Program-made: the position numbers and the translations under genes
Assembly: GCA_035496355.1 (NCBI GenBank)
Contig: DATJES010000038.1
Span: forward strand, 4,337 to 68,336
DNA from: Lacunisphaera sp.
GTDB taxonomy: Bacteria; Verrucomicrobiota; Verrucomicrobiia; Opitutales; Opitutaceae
Length of the DNA stretch: 64,000 nt
Direction of reading: 5' to 3'
Shown: piece after piece, positions 4,085 to 30,260 of the stretch
How the letters are laid out: every line of letters begins with the position of its first letter
Position numbering within the stretch: position 1 is the stretch's first letter
The notes under the pieces: generated by a model
Told to the model about the DNA's origin: nothing
What the model saw: only the letters and a program-made list of their open reading frames with translations
The model's database searches: none

Positions 4085-5311
4085 ATGAAGATGCCCCCTT
4101 GCTTTCCCCTCTCCGGAATCATCTGCCTCCTGGTTGTTGCCACGCCCGCGGTGGGCACGGAACCTGCCGGCGGCGGCGCCCCGGCGGGACCCGGCCAGGT
4201 GCTCTTCATGGGCACCGACCTCATGTTGCAGTACGAGAAGAAGCTCTACCGGGTCGATGACGTCGAGGGCAGCGCTTTCCGGATCAAGGTCGACGGCAAG
4301 GACGTCTATGTGCCGACCCAGCGCCGTGCGATCAGCCTCCATGTGGACGCCGACCTCAAGCTGGCGGGCTTATCCGTGCAGCTGGACGAACTGGACGCCC
4401 GGGAAGGCTACACCTACGGCAACAATCCCCTGCGGAAGCTCGAGGAAGCCAACCGGAACCAGATGGTGACTCAAGATATGCAGGACACAGCCAAGGCCGG
4501 CATCGAGCACTCGGAAGCCAACTTGATTGCGATCAAGGAAATGACCTCGCACTACACCGATCGAGCCCGGGCGGAGGCCGAGGTCGCCACCGCCGAGGCG
4601 CAGGTCCGGGACAGCTATCATTTCTCGGACTATTCCACGATTTCCGCCGGATCCGACTCGAGCAGCATCGCGGTGGGCGCGCAGCGGATGGCTGAGGCGA
4701 AAGGCAAGTACGATGCGATGGAAGTCTCGTTCAAGGTTTCATCCCCGGTCGAGCTCAAGCAGCCTTACATGGTGATCCTCTACCGGTTTCACGACCCGGC
4801 GGCGAAGCCGGGCGAGAACGGCCTGGCGATCCATGCGCAGGCGCTCGACCCCATCGATGCCAAGCCGCGCTATGTCCATGTGCTGCGCGGCGGCCTGCCG
4901 GTGGGTTTCAAGTACGTGGACAGCGAGGTCCACATCTACAATCGCGGCCGGGAAGTGGCCACCAACCTGTCGGGCAAGCGGGTCGAGCTCACGCGCGCCG
5001 AAGCGCAGCAATACCTGGTGATGAACCACGTCGGCGCGCACAAGGGCGCCACGCTGCCGCCGGCCGCTGTGGCCGGCACGTTGTCGCTCACCCGGCGCGA
5101 GAGCCTGACGCCCGCCCAGCTGACCCGGACGGTCTACGTGAAGGTCGGCCAGGACGGCACCTTGCTCGGCGCTTTCCAGGACCGGGACTGCCAGTCGCCC
5201 GTCGAGGACGCGGGACTGAAGGACGCGCTCGGTGAGGTGTTCTTCGCGCCCGCGCTCGAGGCTGGCAAACCCGTCGAGGGCGTCGCGCGGATGCGGCTGG
5301 CGGAGATTTGA
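4085..5311 (+). CDS. secreted hypothetical protein, tandem paralog 1
   Basis: 408 aa. Signal-like MKMPPCFPLSGIICLLVVATPAVG. Colinear with the next gene. The C-terminal end VFFAPALEAGKPVEGVARMRL faintly recalls a TonB-C-like end; this is a weak match. Confidence 0.75.
   Translation: MKMPPCFPLSGIICLLVVATPAVGTEPAGGGAPAGPGQVLFMGTDLMLQYEKKLYRVDDVEGSAFRIKVDGKDVYVPTQRRAISLHVDADLKLAGLSVQLDELDAREGYTYGNNPLRKLEEANRNQMVTQDMQDTAKAGIEHSEANLIAIKEMTSHYTDRARAEAEVATAEAQVRDSYHFSDYSTISAGSDSSSIAVGAQRMAEAKGKYDAMEVSFKVSSPVELKQPYMVILYRFHDPAAKPGENGLAIHAQALDPIDAKPRYVHVLRGGLPVGFKYVDSEVHIYNRGREVATNLSGKRVELTRAEAQQYLVMNHVGAHKGATLPPAAVAGTLSLTRRESLTPAQLTRTVYVKVGQDGTLLGAFQDRDCQSPVEDAGLKDALGEVFFAPALEAGKPVEGVARMRLAEI
4700..5311 (+). 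repeat. near-identical 3' gene segment, copy 1 of 2 (offset 1301 nt)
   Basis: Manual alignment of 4769-5311 with 6070-6612 gives about 20 mismatches over about 540 nt, with only 2 in the first about 270 nt. The spurious track ORFs 4833..5021 and 6134..6322 translate almost identically. Confidence 0.9.
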
Positions 5312-5319
5312 CCACAGCC

Positions 5320-6612
5320 ATGTCCCTCCAGCCGGCAGCGAACGGAGCCTGGGTTGCGGCCGCCGCTCGCGGGTTGCGGGCGAAGTGCTCACCTGTCGCC
5401 CGCCGGCTGCTGCTGCTGGCCGCGGTCCATCCTGGGCTGGCCGCCATGGCGGGTGGCGCCGATGGCGCGCCCGCGGTGCCCGGCCAGGTGCTCTTCATGG
5501 GCACCGACCTGATGTTGCAATACGAGAAGAAGCTCTACCGCGTGGAGGACGTCGAGGGCAGCGCGTTCCGCATCAAGATCGACGGGAAGGATGTCTATGT
5601 GCCGACGCAGCGGCGCACCATCGGTCTCCACGTTGACGCCGATCTCAAGCTGGCAGGTTTGTCCGTACAGCTGGATGAAATGAAGGCCGCCGAAGGCTAC
5701 ACCTATGGCAACAACCCCCTGCGGAAGCTGGAGGAGGCCAACCGAAACCAAATGGTGACCCAGGACCGGCAGGACTATGCCAACGCCGGCGTCGAGCATT
5801 CCGCTGCGAACCTGGTCGCCGTCCAGAAGAATGCCCAAATGGGAGGGTATGGCGACCCGAACGGGCCCCGGGCCCAGCAGGAGATCATGACCGCCCAGGC
5901 GCAGCTTCAGAACAGCCAGCACTATTCGGATTACTCGACCATCGCGGGGTCGTCGGATTCCAGCAACATCGGCTCGGGCGCCCTGCGGATGGCGGAGGCC
6001 AAGGGCAAATACGATGCGATGGAAGTCTCGTTCAAGGTCTCCTCCCCGGTCGAGCTGAAGCAGCCCTACATGGTGATCCTCTACCGGTTTCACGACCCGG
6101 CGGCGAAGCCGGGCGAGAACGGCCTGGCGATCCATGCGCAGGCGCTCGACCCCATCGATGCCAAGCCGCGCTATGTCCATGTGTTGCGCGGCGGCCTGCC
6201 GGTGGGTTTCAAGTACGTGGACAGCGAGGTCCACATCTACAATCGCGGCCGGGAAGTGGCCACCAACCTGTCGGGCAAGCGGGTCGAGCTCACGCGCGCC
6301 GAAGCGCAGCAGTACCTGGTGATGAACCACGTCGGCGCGCACAAGGGCGCCACGCTGCCGCCGGCTGCCGTGGCCGGCACATTGTCGCTCACCCGGCGCG
6401 AGAGCCTGACTCCCGCCCAGCTGACCCGAACGGTTTACGTGAAAGTCGGCCAGGACGGCACCTTGCTCGGTGCCTTCCAGGACCGGGACTGCCAGTCGCC
6501 CATTGAGGACGCAGGACTGAAGGCCGCGCTCGATGAGGTGTTCTTCGCGCCCGCGCTCGAGGCCGGCAAACCCGTCGAGGGCGTCGCGCGGATGCGGTTG
6601 GCAGAACTCTGA
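5320..6612 (+). CDS. secreted hypothetical protein, tandem paralog 2
   Basis: 430 aa from ATG 5320 (track start 5308 is TTG and overlaps the previous stop). It has the same N-terminal block GQVLFMGTDLMLQYEKKLYRV and a nearly identical C-terminal half. Confidence 0.75.
   Translation: MSLQPAANGAWVAAAARGLRAKCSPVARRLLLLAAVHPGLAAMAGGADGAPAVPGQVLFMGTDLMLQYEKKLYRVEDVEGSAFRIKIDGKDVYVPTQRRTIGLHVDADLKLAGLSVQLDEMKAAEGYTYGNNPLRKLEEANRNQMVTQDRQDYANAGVEHSAANLVAVQKNAQMGGYGDPNGPRAQQEIMTAQAQLQNSQHYSDYSTIAGSSDSSNIGSGALRMAEAKGKYDAMEVSFKVSSPVELKQPYMVILYRFHDPAAKPGENGLAIHAQALDPIDAKPRYVHVLRGGLPVGFKYVDSEVHIYNRGREVATNLSGKRVELTRAEAQQYLVMNHVGAHKGATLPPAAVAGTLSLTRRESLTPAQLTRTVYVKVGQDGTLLGAFQDRDCQSPIEDAGLKAALDEVFFAPALEAGKPVEGVARMRLAEL
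6001..6612 (+). repeat. near-identical 3' gene segment, copy 2 of 2
   Basis: See 4700..5311. Confidence 0.9.
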
Positions 6613-7912: not shown

Positions 7913-10390
<2,478 letters not shown>

Positions 10391-10697
10391 GCTAGGGGTG
10401 TGTAATGAAGTGACAAACCTGCCAAGCGCCGGAAAGCGAGGCCAGTTCAAACTGGATGGCCGCCCGGGGAAGCATTGACGTTTAGGCTGGTTAATCATGC
10501 CTATCAAAGTCCCGCTCCGCGCCCTGTGGTTGCGGAAAATCTCGCGACGGACAGCGTCTTGAGTCCGCCCGACCGGCGGCCCCCCCGCGCGGATGGAACC
10601 GAACCGTAGCCGCATTGGAGCGCCGCGCCAACGTGGTTGCGCCCGGGCCCGCGGCTCAAGCGTGGCTACGCCCCTCTTTGAGACTGCCGTGGCATCC

Positions 10698-10717
10698 GCG
10701 GGGTGAGGGCACCCCGC
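10698..10717 (-). terminator. GC hairpin after the pseudopilin operon (no U-tract)
   Basis: Perfect 8-bp stem GCGGGGTG/CACCCCGC with a 4-nt loop, 13 nt after the stop at 10731. No T-run follows, so terminator function is uncertain. Confidence 0.25.
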
Positions 10718-10730
10718 CCCCAAGCGGCGT

Positions 10731-12134
10731 TCAGAACGTGTGGCTGGTGAAAGCCGAGGCGTAGGTGTTGCGCTGGGCCTCCGTGGTCAACTCCTCCCAG
10801 AGCGAGACTCGATAAGGATTGCCGCCGCCAAAGTCGCTGAGGGATTCGTCGTAGTGGAACGCCGCGTTGCCAGTCAGGGTGATGTTGTTGGCCACGACCG
10901 AGCCGGAAACGTCGCCATTGCCCGCGATGGTGACGTTGGCGGTCGGGGCATAGACGACGCCGGAGAAGGCGCCGTTGCCCTTGATCGAGATATTCTGGCT
11001 GGTCGTGCTGGTGCCCCACACCTGGAAATTCTTGGCCTGCCCCTGGGTCGCCTGGGTCGTGCCGCCGTTGGCCACGCCGTTGCCGGTGATGTCGACGGTG
11101 CCGGCGGTATAGATTTTCAGCGAGCTGCCCGGGGCGATGTAGATGCTGGAGTTGCCGGTCATGCTGATGCTCGAACTGACGATGAGTGTGACGTCACCCT
11201 GGATCGTAAGGACCTTGGTGTTGTTGCCGGAGCTCGAGATGGACGAGATCGTGTAGACATTGGTGGTGCCCGCGGTGCCGATCGTCGTGGGCAGGTCGTT
11301 GTTGCCAAGGGAGGCGAGGCTGCTGCCGCCGGTCGGGGTGCTGACCGGGTCGAAGCTGGCGGAGAAATCCGTGGAGACGCGATTCGGGTCGACCGTCACG
11401 CCCGCCGGGGTGTTGGCGCCCATGATGGAGCCGTTGTTGCCGACGCTCGGGGCCGCCCCGCCGGTGCCGACATAGCCCCAGACGTCGGCTTGATTCACGC
11501 TGACGCTGCCGACGCCGACCGAGATGCTGCCTACGCTGCCGTTGTCGTTCCGGTAGCTGGTATTGTACGGAACCGGGGAGGCCCGCGTCGTGCCGTCGGG
11601 ATTCTTCTCGGAATTCCAGCTGTCGACGGAGGCGTTGTTGCCGTTGAACGTGATGGTGTTTTTCGCCACGAGGCCGTTGGAGAACTTGGACGTCTTGCGG
11701 ATCTGGACCATGACCCATTTTTCGATCGTCTTGCTGGTGTAGCCGCCGAGTGTGACGGTGGCGCGGGCGACGAACTTCGGGGAGGACACACCGGTGTAGT
11801 TGTAGGCGATGACCTGGACGATGCCCGTGCCGCCGCCATCGAAAGTATAGGTACCGGTGGAGGGGAACTGGCGCCAGGCGTTGATCCCGTCGTTGTGCCA
11901 GTCGGACCAGGTATAAGTGGTGTCGTCGACCGCCTTGTTGATGGAATACATCGCCTCCTCGAGGCCGTTCTCGGCCAGATTCATCGCGCCGTTGTTGTAG
12001 AGGGCGCGATTGGAGATGGTGATGCTGGTGCGGGCGAGCTGCAGGTAGCTGGCGATCGAGATGCCGATGATCGAGCACAGCAGGAGGCAGACGATGAGCA
12101 GCGAACCCTTCTGGGAATGGAGGCGGGAGTGCAT
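10731..12134 (-). CDS. GspK/PilX-like minor pseudopilin with a large beta-helix-like C-terminal domain (K1)
   Basis: Start trimmed to ATG 12134. The N-terminus QKGSLLIVCLLLCSIIGISIASYLQLA matches the PilX_N/GspK style (hydrophobic helix, no Glu+5). The C-terminal half has GN-rich repeats (ITGNGVANGG, IKGNGAFSG, IAGNGDVSG, LTGNAAFHYDESL). Colinear with 15714..17144. Confidence 0.7.
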   Translation of the reverse strand: MHSRLHSQKGSLLIVCLLLCSIIGISIASYLQLARTSITISNRALYNNGAMNLAENGLEEAMYSINKAVDDTTYTWSDWHNDGINAWRQFPSTGTYTFDGGGTGIVQVIAYNYTGVSSPKFVARATVTLGGYTSKTIEKWVMVQIRKTSKFSNGLVAKNTITFNGNNASVDSWNSEKNPDGTTRASPVPYNTSYRNDNGSVGSISVGVGSVSVNQADVWGYVGTGGAAPSVGNNGSIMGANTPAGVTVDPNRVSTDFSASFDPVSTPTGGSSLASLGNNDLPTTIGTAGTTNVYTISSISSSGNNTKVLTIQGDVTLIVSSSISMTGNSSIYIAPGSSLKIYTAGTVDITGNGVANGGTTQATQGQAKNFQVWGTSTTSQNISIKGNGAFSGVVYAPTANVTIAGNGDVSGSVVANNITLTGNAAFHYDESLSDFGGGNPYRVSLWEELTTEAQRNTYASAFTSHTF

Positions 12135-12142
12135 GGAAGGAA

Positions 12143-12730
12143 TCAGGCGGTGACGACCTTGTTGCGGAGGATGAAGCGTGCGGAGAGCACGGTGTTGGTG
12201 GCGGCGACGACGGTGGTGTTCGTGCGCGACGCCTGCAGGGATATCTGGATCTGCTTCGTGCTCGCGCTGGAGGCGGTGCAGTCGGAGGCCGACGCGAGCG
12301 ACAGCGAGGTGCCGTTCACGTTGTAGGCGGTGAAGGTGAAGGTGCCGCTGGTGATCCCGGTGATGAGCGTCCGGGTGCTGCCCGAGGCAGTGCGGGAAAA
12401 CGTACCGGCCGAGCTGTCGTAGGCATAGGTCACGGCCACGCCGATGACCGTCAGCGTCACGGAGCTGCTGGAATTCCAAGTGACGGCGCTGGCCTGGCGC
12501 GAATCCTCGGCGAACAACTCGAGGGCGGTGCGGGCCTGCGCTTCCATGTCGCTGTAATTGCGGAGATTGGCGCCGCTGCGGCCCATGAAGAGGAAGGTGC
12601 TGAGCACGGCGGCCAACAGGAACGCAGCCAGCCCGGCGCTGATCATGACCTCGACGAGCGTGAATCCGCGCGCCGCGGCGGCCGGCCGGCGGTCAGGTGG
12701 ACGGATGGGCGACGGTGTAGTAGTAATCAT
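12143..12730 (-). CDS. GspJ-like prepilin-type pseudopilin (J1)
   Basis: AARGFTLVEVMISAGLAAFLLAAV is a classic prepilin cleavage/methylation motif followed by a hydrophobic helix. 195 aa. Overlaps the upstream gene by 38 nt. Confidence 0.8.
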   Translation of the reverse strand: MITTTPSPIRPPDRRPAAAARGFTLVEVMISAGLAAFLLAAVLSTFLFMGRSGANLRNYSDMEAQARTALELFAEDSRQASAVTWNSSSSVTLTVIGVAVTYAYDSSAGTFSRTASGSTRTLITGITSGTFTFTAYNVNGTSLSLASASDCTASSASTKQIQISLQASRTNTTVVAATNTVLSARFILRNKVVTA

Positions 12731-13232
12731 AAAGGCCGTTTTGGGAGTAGATGGCGGTGAAGCTGCGCTGGTGCCAGCGGAGGTCGTAGGACTGCCAGCG
12801 GACCGAGATGGTGATGTCCTTCATCGATCCCGGGTGGTCGGCATCGTCGGCCACGGTGCGCGTGACAGTGTATTTGCCCGAGACGACGGCGCTGGTGCTG
12901 AAATAGGTGGCGCCATCGAAGGTCTCGGTCGCGGGGAGTTCGACGATGCTGTCGACGGCGGTGGTGGACGTCTTGCTCCACGGCATCATGCGGAGCCGCT
13001 CCATCTCGCTCTGGATGATCTGCGAGGCGAGGGTGGTGCCGCGGGCGACATCGACCTGCTTGTACCCGGATTGGATCGCGATGATCGAGGTGGCGATGCC
13101 GAGCGCCATGACAAAGGAGGCCATCGTGACCTCCATGATCGTGAAGGCCCGCCGGTCGCGCAGGCAGCGGCGGGCGGAGAAACGGCCGGTGCCGGCGGAG
13201 GCCGCGCAGGTCGGGACGTGGGTGGTGCGCAT
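12693..13232 (-). CDS. GspI/PilV-like prepilin-type pseudopilin (I1)
   Basis: RRAFTIMEVTMASFVMALGIATSIIAI is a prepilin-like motif. QSEMERLRMMPWS is shared with I2. The 29-aa leader is unusually long, so the start is uncertain. Confidence 0.7.
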   Translation of the reverse strand: MRTTHVPTCAASAGTGRFSARRCLRDRRAFTIMEVTMASFVMALGIATSIIAIQSGYKQVDVARGTTLASQIIQSEMERLRMMPWSKTSTTAVDSIVELPATETFDGATYFSTSAVVSGKYTVTRTVADDADHPGSMKDITISVRWQSYDLRWHQRSFTAIYSQNGLYDYYYTVAHPST

Positions 13233-13293
13233 GCCGGCATCCTACGCCGGCGGCGCCCGCCCGGGAACAGGCGTTGGCCTGCCGAAAGCGGCC

Positions 13294-13986
13294 CTAGCGA
13301 TTAGAGCCGAATGGCGGAGTCGTATTCCGGTTCTCGGTGTAGAGCACGGCGGCCTGGGAGCGGCGGCTGATCTGCAGCTTCTCGAAGATGTTGCTCAGAT
13401 AGTTCTTCACCGTCTTGTCGCTCAGTCCCATTTGCTCCGCGATTTCCTTGTTGGTCTTGCCCTCGGCGACGAAGGCGAGGACGCGGCGCTCCTGCGCGGA
13501 CAGCAGCGCGAGCTTGTCGCCGTCGCTCTGCGGCGGGCCGTTGCGGACGAAGTTGAGCACGCGCGTGGTGACGGCGGGGTCGAGGATGAACTTGCCGGCG
13601 GCGACATCGACGATCGCCTGGTAGAGGCCGGGCGGATTGATCTCCTTCAGCAGGTAGCCATGGGCGCCGCTGCTCATCGCCTCGTAGACAAGGTTGTCGT
13701 CGATGACGGACGTGAGAATGAGCACCTGCGTGTCGGCCTGGCTGGCCAGGATCTGCCGGCAGGCCTCGAAGCCGGAGCCATCCGGGAGGCGGATGTCGAG
13801 GAGGACGACATCGGGCGCCAGGCGCGCGCATTCGGCCACCGCGGTGGCGACGGTGCTGGCCTCGCCGACGACCTGCAGCTGGGAGCCGGTGCCCGGGTTG
13901 GCGAGGAGGGTTTTCAATCCGGTCCGCACGAGCTCGCTGTCATCGACAAGCAGGATCGTGATCGGTTTGATGGCGGTGGCGGGCAT
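13294..13986 (-). CDS. NarL/FixJ (LuxR-type) response regulator
   Basis: Receiver domain (ILLVDDSELVR ... VVLLDIRLPDGSG) plus a LuxR HTH (LSAQERRVLAFVAEGKTNKEIAEQMGLSDKTVKNYLSNIFEKL). Confidence 0.9.
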   Translation of the reverse strand: MPATAIKPITILLVDDSELVRTGLKTLLANPGTGSQLQVVGEASTVATAVAECARLAPDVVLLDIRLPDGSGFEACRQILASQADTQVLILTSVIDDNLVYEAMSSGAHGYLLKEINPPGLYQAIVDVAAGKFILDPAVTTRVLNFVRNGPPQSDGDKLALLSAQERRVLAFVAEGKTNKEIAEQMGLSDKTVKNYLSNIFEKLQISRRSQAAVLYTENRNTTPPFGSNR

Positions 13987-13989
13987 GGG

Positions 13990-15624
13990 TCAGCTGGGTT
14001 GGAGGTTGAACTTTAAAGTGAGTCGCGTGCCCTGGGCGGGCTGGGATTCGAGTCGGAGGCTCGCGCCCATTTCGCGGGCCCGGGCGGACACATTGATGAG
14101 GCCGCTGCCGGCGGTGACGGCGTCCGGGTCAAAGCCCCGGCCATCGTCCTCGAGCGCCAATACAACGGAACCCGCCTCCTCATGCAACCGCAGTGTGATG
14201 CGGGTGGCATCGCCGTGGCGGACGGCGTTGCTGATGCTCTCGCGCACGATCTGCAGGGCGTGGAGCTGGTCGCGCGGCGACAGGCGGCTGGCGGCGGCCG
14301 GGTCGATCCGGAGTTCGAGGCGCACCGGATGCAGCGCCTCCATGGTGGTGGCGAGCGTCTGCAGCGCCGGTGCGAATCCGACGATGCCCTCCGGCTCGAT
14401 GCCCGTGATGAAGCCGCGGACGTCGCGGATCGTCAGGTTCAGGCTGTCGCGCACCGCGCCAAGGCGCCGCACGGCCTCCTCCTGGTCGGTCTCGAGCGCG
14501 GCGCGCGCCGACTCGAGGCCGAGTCCGGCGGCGTAGATCGACTGGATGACGCCGTCATGCAGGTCGCGCGCGAGCCGGGTGCGAAGGGCGGCGGACCGCC
14601 GCAATTCGGCCTCGCTCTCGCGCAGCGCGGCCTCGGTGCGGTTGTGCTCCTCGACCTCGTGCTTCAGCTCGGCGCGCTGGCGGAACGCGGCCTCGGTCAT
14701 GCGGGCCAGGCGCCCGAATTCATCCGCCTGCCGGAGCAGGCCGCCGAGCGGGGCGGGGGAGTTGCCCGCCATGCTGGCTTCGAGCTGCCGGAGCGGGTTG
14801 ATGACCCAGCGCGAGACACCCAGGAAGGTCAGGGTGATCACGATGATGCCGAAGGCATAGAACACATACATGTCATTCCGGTTGTCTTCGAGCAACCGCA
14901 CCAGCGGCTCCGGGTGATAGTAGGCATGGAGCAAGCCCACCGGCCGGCCATCGAGGCCGGCCAGCGGCTGGTCGAGATGGAGGCCGAGGTCCTCGGGCGG
15001 ATGCTCCAGCCGCGTGCCCGGGGCGAAGAGCGCCAGGTCGCTGTCGAGGACGCGACCGATATTCTGCAGGAAGGCGGGGCTCCACAGCTGGCCCGCGAGA
15101 AACCAACCCTGCGGCGCGGTCTGGCGCGCCACATCCGATGAAGGTTGGATCGGTCCGGCGCGCACCTCGAGGACGCCGGCGGGCACCTCGACGAAAAAGC
15201 GGGCAAAACGATCGGCCCGCAGGCGGTCGAGCAGCGGGCCGGTCGACCACGGCAGCCCGCGCATGGGTTCGTCGAGCTGCCGGGCCGCGGCGTAGACCAG
15301 CGAGCCATCGGGTCGGAGCACCCAGGCGGCATTCACATTGAAGGTCTGGAGGCTCGCCTCGATGTTGATGGCGGCCCAGGAACGGTCGCCGGAGCGGACG
15401 AACGCCAGCATTTCGTCCCAATTCGAGTAGTCGGTGGCAAAATTGCGCAGCGACCGGCTGTTGAGCTCGGTGACCTGCTGCAGCAGCTGGGCGCGTTCGC
15501 GGCGCAGGTTGGCGAGCATCGCCTCGGCCTCGCGGAGATGCATCGACCGCAGGACCCCGGCCGTCACGCCGAAGCCGGCGAGCAGGGCGCCGAGCAGCAG
15601 CACGAGGCGGGCTTTGGTACTCAT
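13990..15624 (-). CDS. sensor histidine kinase (HK1): CHASE4-like periplasmic domain, HAMP, HisKA_3 and HATPase
   Basis: DYSNWDEMLAFV ... NVNAAWVLRPDGSLVYA resembles CHASE4. LARDLHDGVIQSIYAAGLGLE is a HisKA_3 H-box. The C-terminal region is an ATPase domain. Start set at ATG 15624 (MSTKARLVLLLGALLAGF) by analogy with HK2. The alternative ATG 15717 overlaps the K2 stop (ATGA). Confidence 0.85.
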   Translation of the reverse strand: MSTKARLVLLLGALLAGFGVTAGVLRSMHLREAEAMLANLRRERAQLLQQVTELNSRSLRNFATDYSNWDEMLAFVRSGDRSWAAINIEASLQTFNVNAAWVLRPDGSLVYAAARQLDEPMRGLPWSTGPLLDRLRADRFARFFVEVPAGVLEVRAGPIQPSSDVARQTAPQGWFLAGQLWSPAFLQNIGRVLDSDLALFAPGTRLEHPPEDLGLHLDQPLAGLDGRPVGLLHAYYHPEPLVRLLEDNRNDMYVFYAFGIIVITLTFLGVSRWVINPLRQLEASMAGNSPAPLGGLLRQADEFGRLARMTEAAFRQRAELKHEVEEHNRTEAALRESEAELRRSAALRTRLARDLHDGVIQSIYAAGLGLESARAALETDQEEAVRRLGAVRDSLNLTIRDVRGFITGIEPEGIVGFAPALQTLATTMEALHPVRLELRIDPAAASRLSPRDQLHALQIVRESISNAVRHGDATRITLRLHEEAGSVVLALEDDGRGFDPDAVTAGSGLINVSARAREMGASLRLESQPAQGTRLTLKFNLQPS

Positions 15625-15713
15625 GTGGGGCCGGAGCCATTCCAACGGACGGCGCGCCCAAGGCAAAACAAAGGGCGCATCGGCGCGGGCCGCGGGGGTG
15701 ACGCCGCCGGGGT

Positions 15714-17144
15714 TCATGGGAGTTGGGCGGCCAGGCTGGAGATCTCGCCGGCAGCGGTGATCTCGCGCCAGGTGCTGACGCCAAAGGGCATGTCGCTGCT
15801 GGCGTTGGCGAGCGACTCGTCATAGTGGAACGCCGCATTGCCGGTGACGTTGATCGTCCGGGCGACAAAGGCGCCCATGACGTCGCCGTTGCCGTTGACC
15901 TGCAGGTCGGCGTTGGGCGCATAGGCGACGGCCCGCAGGGTGCCCTTGCCCGCGACGTGCACGGTCTGGCCGGCATCGCTGGTGTTCGTGCCGTAGAAGG
16001 CGACCGTGCCGGGCCGCACGTTATTGTTCGCCAGGCCGTTTCCGCCGATGAGGATGTCCCCCTCCGCATAGACGACGAGGCTGGAATTGGCGGCGACGAT
16101 GAGGGAGGCGTTGCCGGTCACTTCGAGGGCATGAGCGCCGCTGCCCGCGGTGAGGACGAGGGTGACATCACCATAGATCGTCAACGTGGCATTGCCGGAG
16201 AGCGACACGCTGTTGCAGCGCCATTTGGTGGCCTGGCCGGGGGTGCCGAGCGTGCTGCCGATCGACGCCAGCGGCGTGCCGTCCGTGGGCGCGGTGACGC
16301 TCGGGAAGTCGGCGCTGAAATCGGTCGCCACGCGGGTGGGATCGACCTGCACGCCCGCGGCGGTGTTGCGACCCGTGATCGAGCCTTGGGTGCCGACCCG
16401 CGGCGAACCGCCGCCGGTGTAGACGTAGCCCCAGATGTCGGCCTGATTGACCAGCACGGCGGTATTGTCGACGGACACGCTGGCCACGCTGCCGTGGTCG
16501 TTGCGCGTTGCGGTGCTGTAATCGACCGGCGCGGTCGCGGGGTCGTTGTCCGGGTCGGAGTTCCAGCTGTCGACCGAGGTGTTGGTGCCGGAGAACGTGA
16601 CGGATTGTTTCGCCATCAGGCTCGCGGTGAAGCGCGAGCGCCGGCGAAGGTCGACCTCGATCATCTTGGTGACCGGCGGCTGGTTCAGCGCCTGGATGGT
16701 GGACTGGGCGACGATACGCGGGTTCGTGGCGCCGGTGAACGAATAGTTGTCGACCAGCACGCGGACGGAACCGCTGGTGTTGCTGCCGAAGTCGAAATGG
16801 TCGAAGACCTGTTTCGCGGCCGAGCCGCTCACGGTCCAGCCGGTCCACGCGTCCGCCTGGTGCGCATTGGCGCGATTGAGCGACCACAAGGCCTCCTCGG
16901 CGCCGGCCTCCGCGAGGTTGAACGCCGCGCTCTGCTGGAACCCGCGGTGCGCGAGCCGGGCCGAGCCCAGGCTGAGGTTCATGTAGCTCGTGATGGCCAG
17001 TGCGATCACCGCCATCAGGAGCAGGGCGACGATGAGCACGGTGCCGCGCGCGGACCGGCCAGGCCCGGCCGCCCGGGCGACGGCCCGGCCGGCGGCGCGC
17101 GCGGCGCCGGGGCGAAGCTGGGTGATGGGCGGCAGACGGTGCAT
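15714..17144 (-). CDS. GspK/PilX-like minor pseudopilin with a beta-helix-like C-terminal domain (K2)
   Basis: ARGTVLIVALLLMAVIALAITSYMNL is a PilX_N-like N-terminus. It shares the motifs SVDSWNS, RNDHGSV, VNQADIWGYVYTGG and GNAAFHYDESL with K1. 476 aa. Confidence 0.7.
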   Translation of the reverse strand: MHRLPPITQLRPGAARAAGRAVARAAGPGRSARGTVLIVALLLMAVIALAITSYMNLSLGSARLAHRGFQQSAAFNLAEAGAEEALWSLNRANAHQADAWTGWTVSGSAAKQVFDHFDFGSNTSGSVRVLVDNYSFTGATNPRIVAQSTIQALNQPPVTKMIEVDLRRRSRFTASLMAKQSVTFSGTNTSVDSWNSDPDNDPATAPVDYSTATRNDHGSVASVSVDNTAVLVNQADIWGYVYTGGGSPRVGTQGSITGRNTAAGVQVDPTRVATDFSADFPSVTAPTDGTPLASIGSTLGTPGQATKWRCNSVSLSGNATLTIYGDVTLVLTAGSGAHALEVTGNASLIVAANSSLVVYAEGDILIGGNGLANNNVRPGTVAFYGTNTSDAGQTVHVAGKGTLRAVAYAPNADLQVNGNGDVMGAFVARTINVTGNAAFHYDESLANASSDMPFGVSTWREITAAGEISSLAAQLP

Positions 17145-17737
17145 CAGTTCGTGACCCGTTTGTTGCGCAGGACGTAGCGGGCGGTCACGGCCGACTGCGT
17201 GACGCCGACCGTGGCGATGCTGGAGCGCCGGGCGCGGAGGACCACCTGCAGCTGCTTGGTCTCGAGGTCATTCGTCGCGGTGTTGTCACTGACCCCGTCC
17301 TGTTCGATCTTGTAGCGCTTGAAGGTGAATTCCGGCGCGACATTGCGGACGATGATGCGCCGCGCCGCGGTGGAGGCGCTGTCGCCGGCCACGCGATAAA
17401 GGCAGCCGGCGGTATCGCCGGTGGGGCCGCTGTCATAGGCCCACGTGACCTGCGTGGAGGTGGCGCCGGCGGGAAGGGTGAACGTCACGCTCTGCGCGCT
17501 GTTCCAGTGGACGTCGACGGCGGCGCGCGCATCCTCGGCGAAGGTTTCGAGTCCGCGGCGCACTTCCGTCTCCATCTCGCTCAGGCCGCTGGTGCGGAAG
17601 CCGGACCGGCCGATGAACACGAACGCGCTCAGCACCCCCGCGAGCACGAACGTGCTGAGGGTGGAGGCGATGATCACCTCCACCAGCGTGAAGCCGCGCG
17701 CGGCCGCGGTCCTAGTGCGTGGTGTTGATGTAGTCAT
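17144..17737 (-). CDS. GspJ-like prepilin-type pseudopilin (J2)
   Basis: AARGFTLVEVIIASTLSTFVLAGV motif. Start set at ATG 17737 (MTTSTPRTRT...) by analogy with J1 (MITTTPSPIR...). The track start 17794 is also possible. Confidence 0.8.
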   Translation of the reverse strand: MTTSTPRTRTAAARGFTLVEVIIASTLSTFVLAGVLSAFVFIGRSGFRTSGLSEMETEVRRGLETFAEDARAAVDVHWNSAQSVTFTLPAGATSTQVTWAYDSGPTGDTAGCLYRVAGDSASTAARRIIVRNVAPEFTFKRYKIEQDGVSDNTATNDLETKQLQVVLRARRSSIATVGVTQSAVTARYVLRNKRVTN

Positions 17738-18149
17738 TGAGTCCATCCTTGCCGTAACGCGTGATGAGGCGGGCCGTGTGCTCCCGCCCGTCATAGCCCG
17801 ACCAGGTGGTCGTCAGCGTGATTTCCTTCATGTCGGTCTTGATGGTCGTGATTTGGCGCACGCAGGTGAAGCGGGCGGCGGCGCTGCCGGCCGAGCTGTC
17901 CAGCGTGACCGTGGTTTCGCCCGAACTCTGCAGCGTCTCGAGCTGCGACCAGCTTTTGAGGCGGAGGCGCTCCATTTCCGACTGCATGAGCTGCGTCGCC
18001 AGGGCGAGGTTGCGGGCGGTGTCGACGGCCTGCTGTCCCCGCTGCATCGTCGTGATCGCGGTGACCAGGCCGAAGATGAGCACCACCGAGGCGATCATGA
18101 CCTCGACCAGGGTGAACGCGGCGAGCCGTTCCTGCCGGGCGCGTCTCAT
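17712..18149 (-). CDS. GspI/PilV-like prepilin-type pseudopilin (I2)
   Basis: MRRARQERLAAFTLVEVMIASVVLIFGLV motif. QSEMERLRLKSWS is shared with I1. The ATG overlaps the HK2 stop (ATGA at 18146-18149). Confidence 0.8.
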   Translation of the reverse strand: MRRARQERLAAFTLVEVMIASVVLIFGLVTAITTMQRGQQAVDTARNLALATQLMQSEMERLRLKSWSQLETLQSSGETTVTLDSSAGSAAARFTCVRQITTIKTDMKEITLTTTWSGYDGREHTARLITRYGKDGLNDYINTTH

Positions 18150-19765
18150 GCCGGTTCCTTGCCGGACGGGGGCAGGCGCAGGCTGAGCCGCGTGCCCTGG
18201 CCGGGGGCGGACTGCAGCTGCAGGGCCGCCCGGATCTCGGCCGCGCGCTCGCCCAGGTTGATCAGGCCGCGGCCGGTGCCGGCGCGTTGCGCCGGGTCGA
18301 AGCCGCGGCCGTTGTCCGTGACCTCGAGCACGGCGCCCTCCGCCTCGTCGCGCAGCGTGACCGTGATGCGGGTCGCGGCCCCGTGGCGCATCGCGTTGCT
18401 GATGCCTTCGCGGACGATCTGGAGCAGTTGCACCTCGACCGCGGGCGTCAGGCGGGCGGCCGCGGCGTCGGCGATCCGCACGTCGATCTCGACGGGCGCA
18501 AGGGCGTGCATGGTGCGCGCCAGCGCGCGGACCGCGGCGCCGAAGGTCTGGTAGTCCTGGTTGGGAAACGGCTCGATGTCGTTGATGTAATTCCGGACCA
18601 GGCGAATGGTTTCATTGAGGCTGACGATGCAGTCGGAGATCCGGCCTTCGGCCCCGAACGGATTCTTGCTCATCTGGGTGCGGGCGGCCTCGAGCCCCAG
18701 GCCGGAGGCGTACAGCGCCTGGATGACACTGTCGTGCAGGTCGCGCGCCAGCCGGGCGCGCAGCGACATGGAATGGCGCACCTGTTCCTCGCTGGCCCGC
18801 AGGGCATCCTCGGCGTGCTTGCGCTCGCTGACCTCGTGCTCGAGCGCGCGGCGGGCGGCGAACGAGGATTCGACCAGGCGGGCGACGTGCTGGAACTCGT
18901 CCCGGCGCTCCAGCAGGGGCGCGATCGGCGCGGGATCTTGCCGAGCGAGGCTGTCGCCCACGGCGCGCAGCGGTTGGAGGACCCAGCTCCGGACGCTCAA
19001 GCCCAGGGCCAGCACGAGGAGGGCGCCGAAACCGATGAAGAGGCGGATGACATAGCCGTCCCATTCGATGCTGCTGGTCAGTTCGGCCGGGAGGTCCTGT
19101 TCCATGGCCAGAAGCCGCAGCGGCCGGCCCTTCCAGTCGTTGAGCGGGCGCGAGAAGCGCACGGTCCGTCCGGAAACGGCGGGCGGCGCGGCATCCACCG
19201 GCAGCAGCGTGACGCGACTGTCGCTGATCTGGCCCAGGTGCGCGACCTGCGCCTCGTCCCAGGCGCGACCGGCGAGGAGCCAGCCGCCCCGATCACCTCC
19301 GACGCGCGCGGCGACCACCTGCCACGGGCCGCGCGGGCTGTCGGCGAAGAAGGCGCGCGCTTCGGCGGAAGCCGCGAAATCCGCCACGGGAGGCAGGTCG
19401 GGAAGCGGCACCGCCGGGTTGCGTACCGCCACATGGGCCGGCCGGCCGTCGGCTTGCAGCAGCCACGCGGCGTCGAGCCCGTAGGCCGGCAGGCTCTCGT
19501 CCAGGTGAGCCTTGGCCCACGCCGGATCAGGCTTCTCCAGAAACGCGGCCGTCTCGCTCCAATCGGCAAAGTCAGAGGTGAACTGCCGCAGCGATACCCC
19601 GGTAAGATCGGCCCAATGGGCCAGCTGCATGCGGCTGTCGTCGCGCACGCCCTCGACCATCCGGGCGATATGATCCTGTTCGGCCCGGCGGAGCTGGTAC
19701 AACGCCCCGGCAAAGGCGACGAGCAGCAGACCCAAAACCAGCAGGAGGCGTAGTCTGATGCTCAT
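18146..19765 (-). CDS. sensor histidine kinase (HK2): CHASE4-like domain, HisKA_3 and HATPase; no cognate regulator adjacent
   Basis: Start trimmed to ATG 19765 (MSIRLRLLLVLGLLLVAF). DFADWSETAAFL ... GLDAAWLLQADGRPAH is CHASE4-like. LARDLHDSVIQALYASGLGLE is the H-box. Colinear with HK1. Confidence 0.85.
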   Translation of the reverse strand: MSIRLRLLLVLGLLLVAFAGALYQLRRAEQDHIARMVEGVRDDSRMQLAHWADLTGVSLRQFTSDFADWSETAAFLEKPDPAWAKAHLDESLPAYGLDAAWLLQADGRPAHVAVRNPAVPLPDLPPVADFAASAEARAFFADSPRGPWQVVAARVGGDRGGWLLAGRAWDEAQVAHLGQISDSRVTLLPVDAAPPAVSGRTVRFSRPLNDWKGRPLRLLAMEQDLPAELTSSIEWDGYVIRLFIGFGALLVLALGLSVRSWVLQPLRAVGDSLARQDPAPIAPLLERRDEFQHVARLVESSFAARRALEHEVSERKHAEDALRASEEQVRHSMSLRARLARDLHDSVIQALYASGLGLEAARTQMSKNPFGAEGRISDCIVSLNETIRLVRNYINDIEPFPNQDYQTFGAAVRALARTMHALAPVEIDVRIADAAAARLTPAVEVQLLQIVREGISNAMRHGAATRITVTLRDEAEGAVLEVTDNGRGFDPAQRAGTGRGLINLGERAAEIRAALQLQSAPGQGTRLSLRLPPSGKEPA

Positions 19766-20034
19766 GAGGTGTTTTACAGTGGCGAGGGGGAAGAATGTTT
19801 CTAGCGAGCTTCCCCAATTGGTGCTGGTGCCGGGTCGCATAGGCCCGGGAACCGACCTCAAGAGCAAGTCTTGACGCAATTGTTTAGCGCCTAGGCGGAG
19901 CAATATCCACGAGTTTTACCCTCTAGGGCCATTGGTACCGGCCATTAGCCTCCACGATCGACGTCGTGCGAACGGCCGGCGGCGGTTCGGTCATGGCCGC
20001 GTTGGCCAAGACCAAGGCGATAACCACGCCAAGG

Positions 20035-20490
20035 TCAGCGGGAAATATCGCGCTGGGTGAGGACTTTGAACCCGCGTGAATTCAGCGCCGTGCTCGCGAG
20101 ATCGTTATCCTCGACGCTGAGCACGAGGGCCGACTTTCCTTCGGGGCGCAGCAGGAACGAATACAGGTAATGGATGTTGATCTCGACGGTCAGCAGCGCG
20201 CTCAGCGCCCCCTTGAGCTGCGACTCCTTGGATAGCTCGACGACCACGACATCGCACTCGGTGAAGGAAAAATTGGAGGCGGCCATGAGTTCGCGCGCTC
20301 GCTCGGGGTCATCCACGATGAGGCGGTCGATGGCGCAGTCCGTCGTATCGAGCGTGGTCATCGCCATGATGTGCACGTTGTGCTTCGACAGCAGCGCGAT
20401 CAGGTCCAGCAGCTGGCCGACGCGGTTGGCCAGGAACACCGAGAATTGCTTCACAGGATCGGCGGAAAGCGGGACGGCGGTATCGGACAT
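20035..20490 (-). CDS. ACT-domain-containing protein
   Basis: 151 aa in two ACT-like halves (FSVFLANRVGQLLDLIALLSKHNVHIMAM ... VVVELSKESQLKGALSALLTVEINIHYLY). Confidence 0.5.
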   Translation of the reverse strand: MSDTAVPLSADPVKQFSVFLANRVGQLLDLIALLSKHNVHIMAMTTLDTTDCAIDRLIVDDPERARELMAASNFSFTECDVVVVELSKESQLKGALSALLTVEINIHYLYSFLLRPEGKSALVLSVEDNDLASTALNSRGFKVLTQRDISR

Positions 20491-20537
20491 GGCGGAGACG
20501 CAAGGTAGGCCGGGGGTCGCACGCGGTCAATGCCAGC

Positions 20538-21482
20538 TTGTGCGGGCTTGAGCCGGGCCCGGGGCCGGCTAGCGTCGGCGCCGTGTCCCCGCCCGATCCC
20601 CACCTGCAGGTAACCCAGCGCGCCCACGAGAGCGCGCGGCTCGTGCTGCGCGGGCTCGCGCTGAACATGGTGCTCGCCGCGGTGAAATTCGCCGGCGGCG
20701 TGTTCGGCCATACCTACGCCCTCATCGCCGACGCGGCGGAATCGATGCTGGACGTGCTGAGCTCGCTGCTGGTGTGGGCGGGATTCCGCGTGGCGGCCCA
20801 TCCCCCGGACGCGGACCATCCCTACGGGCACGGCAAGGCCGAGCCGCTGTCGGGCCTGGTGGTGGCCGGCATGATCTTCCTGATGGCCGGCTGGGTGGCG
20901 ACGCACGCCCTGCACGAGATCGTTTCCCCGCACCAGGCCCCGGCGTGGTGGACGCTGATCGTGCTGGCCGGCGTGATTGTCACGAAGACCTGGTTCTCGC
21001 GCCGGCTGGGCATAGCGGGCAAGCAGGCGGGCAGCACGGCGCTCGGCATCGAGGCGTTGCACCACTGGTCGGACGCGATGACCTCGGGCGCGGCCTTCAT
21101 CGGCATCTCGATCGCCCTGTGGGCGGGCCCCGGCTGGGAAACGGCCGACGACTGGGCGGCGCTCTTCGCCTGCGTGATCATCGCGTTCAACGGCCTGGGC
21201 ATGTTCACGCAGGCGCTCGGAGACGTGATGGACACGGCGGCGCCAAAGAACTTCGAGCAGGAGATCCGCTCGCTCGCGCTGGCGGTGCCCGGCGTGCAGG
21301 CGCTCGACAAGGTGCGCGCGCGGAAGAGCGGGCTGAGCCATCTCGTGGACATCCAGGTGCGGGTGGACAGCGATCTCACGGTGCGCGCGGGGCATGAGAT
21401 CGCGCACGCGGTCAAGGATGCGCTGATCGGCTCGCCCCTCGCGATCAGCGACGTGACGGTGCACATCGAACCGATGAAATGA
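20538..21482 (+). CDS. cation diffusion facilitator family transporter
   Basis: TM2 and TM5 metal-site motifs ADAAESMLDVLSS and HHWSDAMTS, and a C-terminal cytoplasmic domain ending in VTVHIEP. The start is uncertain: the track start is TTG and internal GTG codons are possible. Confidence 0.8.
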   Translation: MCGLEPGPGPASVGAVSPPDPHLQVTQRAHESARLVLRGLALNMVLAAVKFAGGVFGHTYALIADAAESMLDVLSSLLVWAGFRVAAHPPDADHPYGHGKAEPLSGLVVAGMIFLMAGWVATHALHEIVSPHQAPAWWTLIVLAGVIVTKTWFSRRLGIAGKQAGSTALGIEALHHWSDAMTSGAAFIGISIALWAGPGWETADDWAALFACVIIAFNGLGMFTQALGDVMDTAAPKNFEQEIRSLALAVPGVQALDKVRARKSGLSHLVDIQVRVDSDLTVRAGHEIAHAVKDALIGSPLAISDVTVHIEPMK

Positions 21483-28985: not shown

Positions 28986-30260
28986 TCAGTTCTTCGGCGG
29001 CCGGGCTCCGGTGCGGAGCGGCAGATCGCCCAGGTAATGGCCGATCCATGATTCGACCGGTACCCCGCGCGCGGGCTCGTAGTAGAATTGCCGGAAAACC
29101 TCGCTGCTGGCACTGGCGAGCGTGGACAGGTCGGGGGTGTTCCGGGCTGCGGCGATCCGACCGATAAGAGCGGGATCCGCCTTGGGATAGGCCTTCGGGT
29201 CCTGGAGATAGTCGCGCACGAAACGATCGACAAACTCGTAGTCAGCTTGCACGTAAAACAAACTGGCGAGCGCGGAGGCGTCTCCACTGGTGGCCGCTTC
29301 AGAAAGGAGTTCGCGAACCGCGGGGTCGTTGGTCACATAGAGTTCACGCCAGGCCTCCTGGATCACGTAAGGATCGGCCGGCTGGTCGCCGTTTTCCCCG
29401 CCGGATTTCTGCGCGGCGACCGCGGTGACAAAATTCAGGGCCGCTCGATCCCCGGCCAGGGCAAACATCGCCCAGGCGGCGGCGACGCGGGTCCGCATAT
29501 CTGTGGTGCTCTCGTAGGTCTCCTTGGCAAACGCGTAGCCATCGACCGACCCCAAAAGACCGAGGTTGCGCAGGGTCCCGGCGATCGTTTCCTCCCGCGC
29601 AGCTGCCTCGACGTAGGGCAGGAACTGGGGGTTGCCTTGAATGGCCATGATGCCGGCGACCCAGCGATTGCCGAACGCCTTTTGCAGGCCCAGCAACAAG
29701 TCGGCTGGGATGGCTTGCAGGTTTCGATCGAGCACGTCGGCGGCGTGCAGCAGTTCGGGGGCCGCTTCGCCCTGGGCATCCGGGGCCGCCCGCAGGATCT
29801 GCAAAAGGGTTTCGCGCCCGGCGGCCGAACCCAACGAAAAAAGGAGGTCCGCGGCATTGATGCGCACCTTGAGATCGGGATCGGTGAGGGCGGATTGGAG
29901 GACGCGAATGGCATCATCGCGCTTAAATCGAGGATCCCTCAGTTCGCTCAGCGCCAGCCAGCGTTCGCGTCCGTCGACGGCCTTCCGGAGTTTCTCCACG
30001 ACGCGGTTGATCGAAAATCGCTCCTGGTCACGAGCGATCGTCGCGGCTGCGAAGGCCGAGACTTCACCGCTATCCTGGCCACCGCCCAGCCCTCCGGCCA
30101 AAGGCGGTTTGTCACCGCGTGGCGGCGCCGACCCAGCTCGCGGCGCGGTGGATGAGCGCACCGCGGCCGGTATCGAGGGAGCCGAGGCGCGCCTCCAGAC
30201 GAGGAGTGCGGCAACGACGATGACCCCGGCAGCGAGAATGACGGATAGGGCCTTCTTCAT
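28986..30260 (-). CDS. membrane-anchored HEAT/armadillo-like repeat protein
   Basis: N-terminal anchor MKKALSVILAAGVIVVAALLVW. HEAT-like units (DDAIRVLQSALTDPDLKVRINAADLLFSLG). Sits 3 nt downstream of the HAF-repeat gene. Confidence 0.55.
   Translation of the reverse strand: MKKALSVILAAGVIVVAALLVWRRASAPSIPAAVRSSTAPRAGSAPPRGDKPPLAGGLGGGQDSGEVSAFAAATIARDQERFSINRVVEKLRKAVDGRERWLALSELRDPRFKRDDAIRVLQSALTDPDLKVRINAADLLFSLGSAAGRETLLQILRAAPDAQGEAAPELLHAADVLDRNLQAIPADLLLGLQKAFGNRWVAGIMAIQGNPQFLPYVEAAAREETIAGTLRNLGLLGSVDGYAFAKETYESTTDMRTRVAAAWAMFALAGDRAALNFVTAVAAQKSGGENGDQPADPYVIQEAWRELYVTNDPAVRELLSEAATSGDASALASLFYVQADYEFVDRFVRDYLQDPKAYPKADPALIGRIAAARNTPDLSTLASASSEVFRQFYYEPARGVPVESWIGHYLGDLPLRTGARPPKN

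Follow-up and report, generated by a model that had tools for sequence, protein, structure and literature searches.

The stretch considered here, hereafter the window, comprises 64,000 nucleotides (nt) of the genome of a Lacunisphaera sp. (GenBank assembly GCA_035496355.1, contig DATJES010000038.1), a soil or freshwater verrucomicrobium of the family Opitutaceae. On its minus strand, within 10731-19903, open reading frame (ORF) calls delineate nine tightly packed genes, in which two cassettes of pilin-like proteins (I, J and K) are accompanied by two sensor histidine kinases (HK) and a response regulator (RR), in the order HK2-I2-J2-K2 followed by HK1-RR-I1-J1-K1 (Table 1). The same gene set was called independently on a public contig with an identical K2, and the Logan gene call for HK2, at 539 amino acids (aa), is consistent with a start at 19765. 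The closest relatives of the window, whose G+C content is 64-70%, are metagenome-assembled genomes of Lacunisphaera/Opitutaceae. One contig, DASZRV010000066 (L001), is syntenic with the window and shares 85-98% amino-acid identity with it over the array and its neighbours.

Table 1. Genes and regulatory features of the array, in window positions.
Feature	Position	Strand	Description
HK2 upstream intergenic region	19766..20034	-	GG(G/C)CCTA copies at 19930 and 19846
HK2	18146..19765	-	CHASE4 sensor kinase, no cognate regulator adjoining; ORF open to 19903
I2	17712..18149	-	PilV/GspI-like minor (pseudo)pilin, 145 aa, motif RLAA|FTLVEV
J2	17144..17737	-	Prepilin-type protein in PilW/GspJ position, 197 aa, motif ARG|FTLVEV; ORF open to 17794
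K2	15714..17144	-	PilX/GspK-type protein of ComZ-like architecture, 476 aa, DUF7305
HK1	13990..15717	-	Second CHASE4 + HisKA_3 kinase, paired with RR; alternative start 15624
RR	13294..13986	-	NarL/LuxR-type response regulator, 3 nt downstream of HK1
Promoter-like element	13239..13312	-	Upstream of I1; 5' part overlaps the end of RR
I1	12693..13232	-	PilV/GspI-like paralogue, 179 aa, motif DRRA|FTIMEV
J1	12143..12730	-	Prepilin-type paralogue, 195 aa, motif ARG|FTLVEV
K1	10731..12134	-	PilX/ComZ-like protein, 467 aa from ATG 12134, DUF7305; ORF open to 12479

Neighbouring genes are joined by short overlaps. The HK2 stop and the I2 start share an ATGA at 18146-18149, J2 and K2 overlap by a single nucleotide (TGATG at 17144), the I and J genes overlap by 26 nt (I2/J2) and 38 nt (I1/J1), and, provided that HK1 starts at 15717, a further ATGA at 15714-17 joins the K2 stop to the HK1 start. 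The paralogues of the two cassettes are 36% (I, E=6e-28), 43% (J) and 42% (K, over 462 aa) identical, and the two kinases 40%. A pattern scan recovered the motifs AFTLVEV (I2), GFTLVEV (J2), AFTIMEV (I1) and GFTLVEV (J1) as the sole four prepilin-type motifs in the window. A preliminary description of this locus had reported the nine-gene array, these junctions and these motifs; all of the ORFs are present at or near the positions it gave, and the junctions and motifs are exactly as it described them.

The arrangement is widespread among relatives of the host. A K pattern search of species-representative genomes yielded 184 confirmed relatives, and the best 80 loci, all from Opitutaceae, Opitutales or unclassified Verrucomicrobiota, were used for all locus counts; the nine window proteins were mapped onto these loci with flanks of up to 10 kb on each side. 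Recurring as it does across 80 related loci, the array is far beyond a chance arrangement. Cassettes are three-gene (I-J-K) units throughout, and, with H denoting a kinase and R a regulator, the architectures comprise HR-ijk-ijk (19 loci), H-ijk-HR-ijk, which is that of the window (14), HRHR-ijk-ijk (6), arrays with three cassettes (at least 5) and, in a few loci, arrays with extra K genes. In 65 of the 68 loci whose upstream sequence sufficed for the comparison, a CHASE4 kinase immediately precedes the first pilin gene; 66 of the 68 encode a regulator, and at least two K genes occur in 54 of the 59 loci with context on both sides.

The K proteins of these loci separate into a K2-type group, with a single member from each of 77 loci that takes first position in 76, and a K1-type group of 58 members in 53 loci (window included), mostly in second position. 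The loci were collected through K2-like patterns, so that only the K1-type grouping is independent of the search. The existence of separate K1 and K2 orthologue groups implies that the duplication is older than the divergence of the sampled Opitutaceae and that both copies have been kept, as had been surmised from the colinearity and strong divergence of the two copies. The idea that each cassette possesses a kinase of its own holds within the window's clade, but elsewhere one or two HK-RR pairs stand before the whole array. An extra K without accompanying I and J (e.g. ...ijk-k) was observed in arrays among L014, L026, L027, L034 and L036, and a third or fourth complete cassette in L026, L029, L052, L053, L058, L063, L067 and L073. 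These extra K genes and cassettes suggest that the presumed tip subunit is still diversifying.

The 80 loci repeatedly show addA/addB-like genes, gyrB, a gene for a zinc-ribbon protein and parts of ABC transporters in the vicinity of the array. In approximately 21-29 of the 80, the array lies 0.5-0.8 kb from divergent AddB-like (PD-(D/E)XK) and AddA-like (UvrD + PDDEXK) genes, for example at L062:2890-5754 (-), L012:833-4120 (-), L037:15470-18076 (+) and L034:15856-16638 (-), and loci of this type have gyrB and a CT398-like zinc-ribbon gene downstream. In E. coli, the ppdA-ppdB-ygdB-ppdC minor-pilin operon adjoins recC. The addAB adjacency, which is absent at the window, may be coincidence or may hint at a link to DNA uptake.

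The I and J proteins bear the marks of prepilins to differing degrees. Both J proteins exceed the cut-offs of the N-methylation models, with 22.9 (J2) and 21.6 bits (J1) for PF07963 (N_methyl, cut-off 21.2) and 17.1 and 18.1 bits, respectively, for TIGR02532 (cut-off 16.3). No PF07963 match was obtained for I1 or I2 at E<=0.01, and TIGR02532 is matched by 24 of 51 I-family members at E<=0.1. The 80 related loci contributed 160 I and 154 J homologues; the motif was identifiable in 109 and 137 of these, respectively, and F+1 and E+5 are invariant in every such case (109/109 and 137/137). Residue -1 is Gly in 74, Ala in 34 and Ser in one of the I proteins, I1 and I2 both having Ala, and Gly in 105 and Ala in 32 of the J proteins.

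Profile hidden Markov models (HMMs) point, weakly but consistently, to I as a remote relative of PilV/GspI. I2 matches PilV (TIGR02523) with E=1e-7 over residues 12-123 (32.5 bits, cut-off 52.2) and gspI (TIGR01707) with E=1.4e-4 (22.3 bits, cut-off 44.35), while I1, whose orthologues occupy the second-cassette position in related loci, matches each at E ~0.009 (~16.5 bits, below the cut-offs). Across the I family, gspI is matched by 49 and PilV by 47 of 51 members at E<=0.1, all of them below the curated cut-offs. As for J, an AlphaFold2 model of J2 (mean predicted local distance difference test score, pLDDT, 82) consists of a 55-residue helix (18-72) followed by nine beta-strands, a generic pilin outline, and many J homologues are labelled 'PilW' by JGI. 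The gspJ HMM (TIGR01711) is matched by 3 of 57 J members (best E 0.017), and none of the comparisons ties J to GspJ/PilW beyond the N-terminal helix. Searches of PDB sequences with I, J and K profiles returned nothing significant, the crystal constructs being devoid of the N-terminal helix, and hhalign comparisons of I, J and K with GspG/H/I/J/K and PpdA/PpdB/YgdB/PpdC of E. coli K-12 aligned the common N-terminal helix only and did not discriminate between these proteins.

The K proteins begin with RG|TVLIVALLL (K2) or KG|SLLIVCLLL (K1), a hydrophobic stretch without Glu at +5, with conservation of 90% or more at R33 and G34 among 38 sequences. K2 falls slightly under the cut-off of PilX_N (PF14341; 20.7 bits against 25.5), and a precomputed match to this family is found in 2 of the 120 K homologues listed. 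The GspK model NF037980 gives 13.8 bits for K against a cut-off of 130, with weak GspK matches in 26 of 38 K proteins. Assignment to DUF7305 (PF23981, cut-off 27) is firm, at 67.1 bits (2.5e-18) for K2 and 88.1 bits (8.7e-25) for K1, and the domain is carried by all 120 K homologues listed. Clustered at 50% identity, the K/DUF7305 family in public data comprises 8,441 clusters at E<=1e-3 and 793 at the stricter limit of E<=1e-30.

An AlphaFold2 model of K2 (pLDDT 85, predicted template modelling score 0.73) shows a long helix (33-93), a small beta-sheet and a large beta-solenoid of ~280 residues. Its secondary-structure order of helix, approximately five strands, solenoid and one late strand is compatible with insertion of the solenoid before the last strand. 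In Foldseek the model is matched best by Thermus thermophilus ComZ (6qvi_B; E=1e-6, probability 1.0, 547 aligned columns) and next by the ice-binding protein 4nuh (E=8e-5); the likeness of K to ComZ is at fold level and derives from one predicted model. ComZ combines a GspK-like pilin domain with an inserted solenoid of the ice-binding type, binds the neighbouring minor pilin PilA2, and is too bulky for any place but the pilus tip; it also binds DNA, for which a role as DNA receptor has been proposed, and its reported relatives are a GspK-like domain and an ice-binding protein (PMC6561018). The bulk of the K solenoid would therefore leave K a seat only at the tip of a fibre. Two other identities considered for K were rejected, namely tapirin, for which the HMM match is limited to the N-terminal helix and Foldseek gives E 0.16-0.22, and bactofilin, whose model gives 17.5 bits (cut-off 27.9).

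These results allow the GspI/J/K analogy drawn in the preliminary description to be judged protein by protein. It is upheld for I by the PilV/GspI HMM matches in 47-49 of 51 members and for K by the PilX_N-like N-terminus, which lacks Glu5 as had been described, together with the ComZ/GspK-like fold match, but not for J, since neither structure nor profile searches linked its globular part significantly to GspJ/PilW. At the level of gene order, sizes and translational coupling, the cassettes agree with both pilV-pilW-pilX and gspI-J-K.

The kinases and the regulator are well defined by Pfam, with all of the following domains above cut-off. HK2 comprises CHASE4 (1e-14), HisKA_3 (9e-10) and HATPase_c (2e-14) and HK1 the same domains (1.8e-18, 9e-13 and 2e-13), while RR combines Response_reg (1.7e-23) with GerE (7e-20). 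Transmembrane segments at residues 1-26 and 236-264 of HK2 lie on either side of CHASE4, which is likewise bracketed in HK1, and this placement between two transmembrane segments puts the sensor on the periplasmic side. Against NCBIfam, RR matches NarL (2.9e-42) and MadR (3e-44), both short of the equivalog cut-offs; identities such as NarX/L, LiaS/R, MctS/R or the like were rejected for kinases and regulator alike, since neither reaches an equivalog cut-off, and we therefore regard the system as an uncharacterised member of the CHASE4-HisKA_3/NarL-type class. A second and unrelated sensory unit occupies 42832-52254 (+) of the window, where a LytS-type histidine kinase (46937-48145) and a LytTR regulator (48142-48981) lie between genes for TonB-dependent receptors (42832-45681 and 49189-52254).

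The promoter-like element upstream of I1 is composed of GGC(T/C)CTA, TAGGGCC and CAGGCC repeats, the box CGCCTGTTCC, a 19-nt spacer and a -10-like TAGGAT, from which 6 nt (GCCGGC) lead to the ATG at 13232. A common layout precedes I genes which follow RR or K: two to three copies of GG(G/C)C(C)TA / AGG(G)CC, a GCCT(C/G)T(A/T)AC box, a spacer of ~19 nt and a TAnnnT hexamer (mostly TAGAGT), usually 6 nt from ATG or GTG. A strict composite pattern has 36 matches on both strands of 1.44 Mb, each directly before an I gene; the window's I1 copy is degenerate, with TTCC in place of T[AT]AC, and hence lies outside this pattern. GG(G/C)C(C)TA is enriched 10-14x upstream of I genes and ~4x upstream of the first kinase. 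An element was seen at the equivalent position in ~60 related loci.

With its -10-like box only 6 nt from the start codon, the I1 element is predicted to give rise to a transcript which is probably leaderless or near-leaderless. The proximity of the TAnnnT box to the start codon would imply leaderless mRNAs in Opitutaceae, and may help the study of verrucomicrobial promoters generally. No such element precedes I2-J2-K2 in the window; given the translational coupling of this unit to HK2, its transcription probably starts upstream of HK2. The intergenic region there is the likely promoter region of the HK2-I2-J2-K2 unit, and in the closest related loci a GGCCCTA stands comparably far upstream of the first kinase. 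A scan of 10300-20600 for sigma-70 promoters and terminators remained at chance level, with no sigma-70 consensus upstream of HK2, and no Rfam riboswitch or other RNA family was found in the window. The GG(G/C)C(C)TA repeats are candidate sites for a NarL-type regulator, which is conjecture on our part.

Taken together, these features probably denote two alternative, signal-regulated priming or tip complexes of the PilV-PilW-PilX(ComZ-like) kind for a type IV pilus (T4P) encoded elsewhere in the genome. We infer that I and J, and possibly K, would enter the inner membrane and be processed by a prepilin peptidase whose gene lies elsewhere, whereupon one I-J-K set would assemble via the N-terminal helices, with K on top, and prime a pilus on a machine which is likewise encoded elsewhere. 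The complex would stay at the tip, where the K solenoid may serve as plug and as adhesin or receptor, and the K1-type and K2-type sets would thus be alternative tips, perhaps of two kinds of filament. A fourth minor pilin of the FimU/GspH type may be shared and encoded elsewhere. Both CHASE4 kinases may sense periplasmic or extracellular cues or, by analogy with FimS, the membrane pool of minor pilins, and through the single NarL-type regulator would set transcription at the I1 promoter and probably also upstream of HK2. Signal-controlled alternative tip modules had been suggested for this locus at the outset, and we still consider them the best reading, one strengthened by the family-wide linkage of kinase and pilin genes and by the promoter-like element of the I genes.

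Several observations weigh against this interpretation. Firstly, Pfam searches of 30 other ORFs of the window revealed no ATPase, platform protein, secretin, prepilin peptidase or major pilin, and patterns for the Walker A motif of PilB/PilT/GspE and the PilD active site were found neither in the window nor in the 80 loci with flanks of up to 10 kb. Likewise, neither the window nor the 10 kb around any of the 80 loci showed a FimU/GspH-like fourth minor pilin or PilY1. The lack of machinery noted earlier for the window thus extends to the related loci; a complete type II secretion system (T2SS) or T4P cluster at the locus can be rejected, and the link to a pilus is therefore indirect, although T4P components including PilT have been reported in Opitutaceae isolates (PMC7251102). 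Secondly, every match of I and K to a named pilin HMM is below the curated cut-off, and Ala rather than Gly stands at -1 in ~30% of the I and 23% of the J proteins. Thirdly, J finds little outside its N-terminus: Foldseek gave no significant PDB match for the J2 model (best E 0.17, to unrelated proteins), the J profile meets PDB sequences in N-terminal pilin segments only (E>0.1), and hhalign of J with E. coli GspJ/PpdB covers residues 3-50 only. Fourthly, the global template modelling score between K2 and ComZ is low (0.26-0.27), and the K-family profile misses ComZ among PDB sequences at E<=10. Finally, binding of the regulator to the promoter element is conjecture, the link between the two being drawn from sequence conservation.

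A sub-case of the tip-complex interpretation would make at least one cassette the tip of a competence pilus, with K as DNA receptor, and assign the other to adhesion or motility, in parallel to the Com/EPS division of cyanobacteria. The best structural match of K2 is to a DNA-binding protein, a cyanobacterial Com-type PilX/PilV set is needed for transformation (bioRxiv 10.64898/2026.02.12.705559), and the addA/addB-like neighbours, with the E. coli ppd operon beside recC, argue weakly in the same direction. However, similarity of K to ComZ is undetectable in sequence, such that the lysines with which ComZ binds DNA have no mappable counterparts, the addAB synteny does not extend to the window and may be coincidental, comEA, comEC and dprA were not seen nearby, and the literature searched holds no report of natural transformation in Opitutaceae. 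We consider this assignment unlikely at present.

Alternatively, the cassettes may be tips of T2SS pseudopili, equivalent to GspI-J-K, with the kinases switching the tip and perhaps the substrate range. Opitutaceae are abundant polysaccharide degraders which secrete many enzymes, and the GspI model is matched by nearly all I proteins (49 of 51) and GspK, weakly, by 26 of 38 K proteins. The pilin domain of ComZ is itself nearest to GspK, and the three-gene I-J-K unit corresponds to the crystallised GspK-I-J trimer (PMC6561018). Known minor pseudopilins, however, lie inside a gsp operon, as in E. coli gspG-H-I-J-K, which is never so in the 80 loci; the ~280-residue K solenoid resembles that of ComZ and cyanobacterial PilX rather than the alpha-domain of GspK, I2 scores higher on the PilV than on the GspI model, and the JGI/COG names of homologues are PilW and PilX. 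These points render a secretion tip quite improbable in our estimation.

The proteins might also form no filament at all, and instead constitute a stand-alone complex of pilin-like surface proteins, anchored in the membrane or released by a peptidase, for adhesion or substrate binding, comparable to beta-helix binders of the tapirin type, in which the prepilin signal is reused for export or anchoring. Such a complex would be at ease with the lack of machinery near any of the 80 loci and with the missing GspJ/PilW fold match of J; moreover, the NCBIfam tapirin model is weakly matched by 35 of 38 K N-termini, and tapirin C-terminal domains are among the non-significant Foldseek matches. Yet the invariant F+1 and E+5 and the 55-residue N-terminal helix are hallmarks of type IV filament subunits, the strict and translationally coupled I-J-K triplet mirrors core minor-pilin sets, and the tapirin matches are, as described for K, either confined to the N-terminal helix or non-significant, all of which makes a non-filamentous role very unlikely.

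The kinship with the TIGRFAMs Verru_Chthon cassette, a four-gene A-B-C-D unit, that was raised in the preliminary description fails by HMM thresholds and is highly improbable: both are repeated prepilin-like cassettes of Verrucomicrobiota, and TIGR02598 (protein B) is weakly matched by 33 of 51 I proteins (best E=3e-6) and TIGR02599 (protein C) by 5 of 57 J proteins at E<=0.1, but I2 reaches 16.4-16.6 bits on TIGR02598 against a cut-off of 51.4, K is matched by none of TIGR02596, TIGR02598, TIGR02599 and TIGR02600, the I proteins match GspI and PilV more often and more strongly, and the cassettes here have three genes, not four, so that strict membership is rejected. A literature search for the Verru_Chthon cassette returned no relevant paper.

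Elsewhere in the window, the products recognised among the 30 ORFs searched against Pfam are regulators, transporters, metabolic enzymes, TonB-dependent receptors and peptidases. The genes at 4085-5311 (+) and 5308-6612 (+) are tandem paralogues of 408 and 434 aa with signal-peptide-like N-termini and no Pfam match, which have in common the conserved block PGQVLFMGTDLMLQYEKKLYRV(D/E)DVEGSAFRIK. An 819-aa ORF at 30264-32723 (-), likewise with a signal-peptide-like N-terminus and no Pfam match, adjoins a HEAT-repeat protein (28986-30260). The interval 30001-32000, which overlaps this ORF, has the lowest G+C fraction of the window (0.585) and may be foreign DNA. The 98-nt 'tRNA-???' that ARAGORN calls at 62670-62767 (-), its anticodon of four bases reading tgag, falls inside the ORF 62571-63971; lacking an Rfam tRNA match, it is probably a false positive.

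If the interpretation as alternative tip complexes is pursued further, the CHASE4 kinases, the one NarL-type regulator and the leaderless promoter may form a family-wide sensory switch which chooses between K1- and K2-type tip sets and, in some genomes, a third. We put this forward as a tentative possibility. Were it true, the same machine would be reprogrammed between adhesion to polysaccharides or surfaces and the capture of DNA; to our knowledge, cassette-linked kinases have not been described as making a ligand-gated choice between alternative tip complexes. How one T4P machine serves adhesion, motility and DNA uptake is an active question, to which cyanobacteria and Myxococcus offer alternative minor-pilin tip complexes as an answer. 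The present locus would be a compact and conserved verrucomicrobial version of that answer, with the sets, their presumed sensors, the regulator and the promoter element side by side, a layout which makes testable which cue selects which tip. Literature searches on minor pilins of Opitutaceae and on DUF7305/PF23981 returned no relevant paper and none describing such cassettes in Verrucomicrobiota, and in the literature searched pili of Opitutaceae are mentioned only as gene inventory. With the interpretation offered here, DUF7305 proteins and the pili of Opitutaceae would gain a first hypothesis as to their function.

Comparison with known systems places the array among the minor-pilin sets of other phyla. 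The GspI-GspJ-GspK tip of the T2SS (E. coli gsp; PDB 3CI0, PMC6561018) has the same order, similar relative sizes and a K without Glu5, but the genes here are outside a gsp operon, K has a solenoid where GspK has an alpha-helical insertion, and the HMM scores are below cut-off. In Pseudomonas aeruginosa, where the order pilV-pilW-pilX is as here, FimS-AlgR controls fimU-pilVWXY1E, and the kinase receives feedback from membrane-located minor pilins (PMC5979040). Two-component control is thus known there and proposed here. FimS is an unorthodox kinase and AlgR is of the LytTR type, whereas the present locus has CHASE4 + HisKA_3 kinases and a NarL/GerE-type regulator; Pseudomonas has one set plus FimU, PilE and PilY1, whereas two to three sets, no PilY1 and a solenoid on K are found here. 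Myxococcus xanthus offers a likeness in its several paralogous clusters for one major pilin and one machine. Of its three minor-pilin/PilY1 clusters, either cluster 1 or cluster 3 is enough by itself for pili to form; the complex initiates assembly and thereafter remains at the pilus tip, and a delta-fimU3 mutant still extends some pili (PMC7541494). Unlike the cassettes here, each Myxococcus cluster consists of four minor pilins plus PilY1, and the clusters are dispersed, with no dedicated kinase reported beside each.

The functionally closest systems appear, by analogy, to be Thermus ComZ and the cyanobacterial minor-pilin sets. Like K, ComZ (with PilA2; PDB 6QVI, PMC6561018) lacks a canonical prepilin motif in its hydrophobic N-terminal helix, is encoded beside small minor pilins and has a bulk suited to the tip only, but the pilA1-pilA2-pilA3-comZ-pilA4 locus is single copy and has no adjacent two-component system. 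Cyanobacteria, like the genomes considered here, have at least two paralogous sets per genome, PilX_Com/PilV_Com and PilX_EPS/PilV_EPS (with PilW and FimT), and their PilX, like K, has a beta-solenoid of the ice-binding type and is proposed to replace PilY1 as tip plug or adhesin. The proposal for these sets is that, under differential regulation, each primes its own kind of filament on a common machine, and the Com and EPS sets prime morphologically and functionally different pili which are oppositely regulated (Schuergers et al., bioRxiv 10.64898/2026.02.12.705559). The J proteins add a weak link, with 26 of 57 matching the cyanobacterial HpsC pseudopilin model. In contrast to cyanobacteria, the present cassettes have three genes, no FimT/FimU-like member and a tandem placement in one array, and are linked to a CHASE4/HisKA_3 kinase and a NarL-type regulator, where cyanobacteria employ CRP-family regulators with cyclic AMP and cyclic di-GMP. 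The novelty first claimed for the locus is accordingly to be narrowed: cyanobacteria, Thermus, Myxococcus and Pseudomonas provide precedents, while none is described for Verrucomicrobiota in the literature searched. Paralogous minor-pilin sets with a solenoid PilX, interchangeable clusters and two-component control of a minor-pilin operon are already known; what differs here are the tandem three-gene cassettes, their family-wide linkage to CHASE4 kinases and a NarL-type regulator, and a promoter element specific to the I genes.

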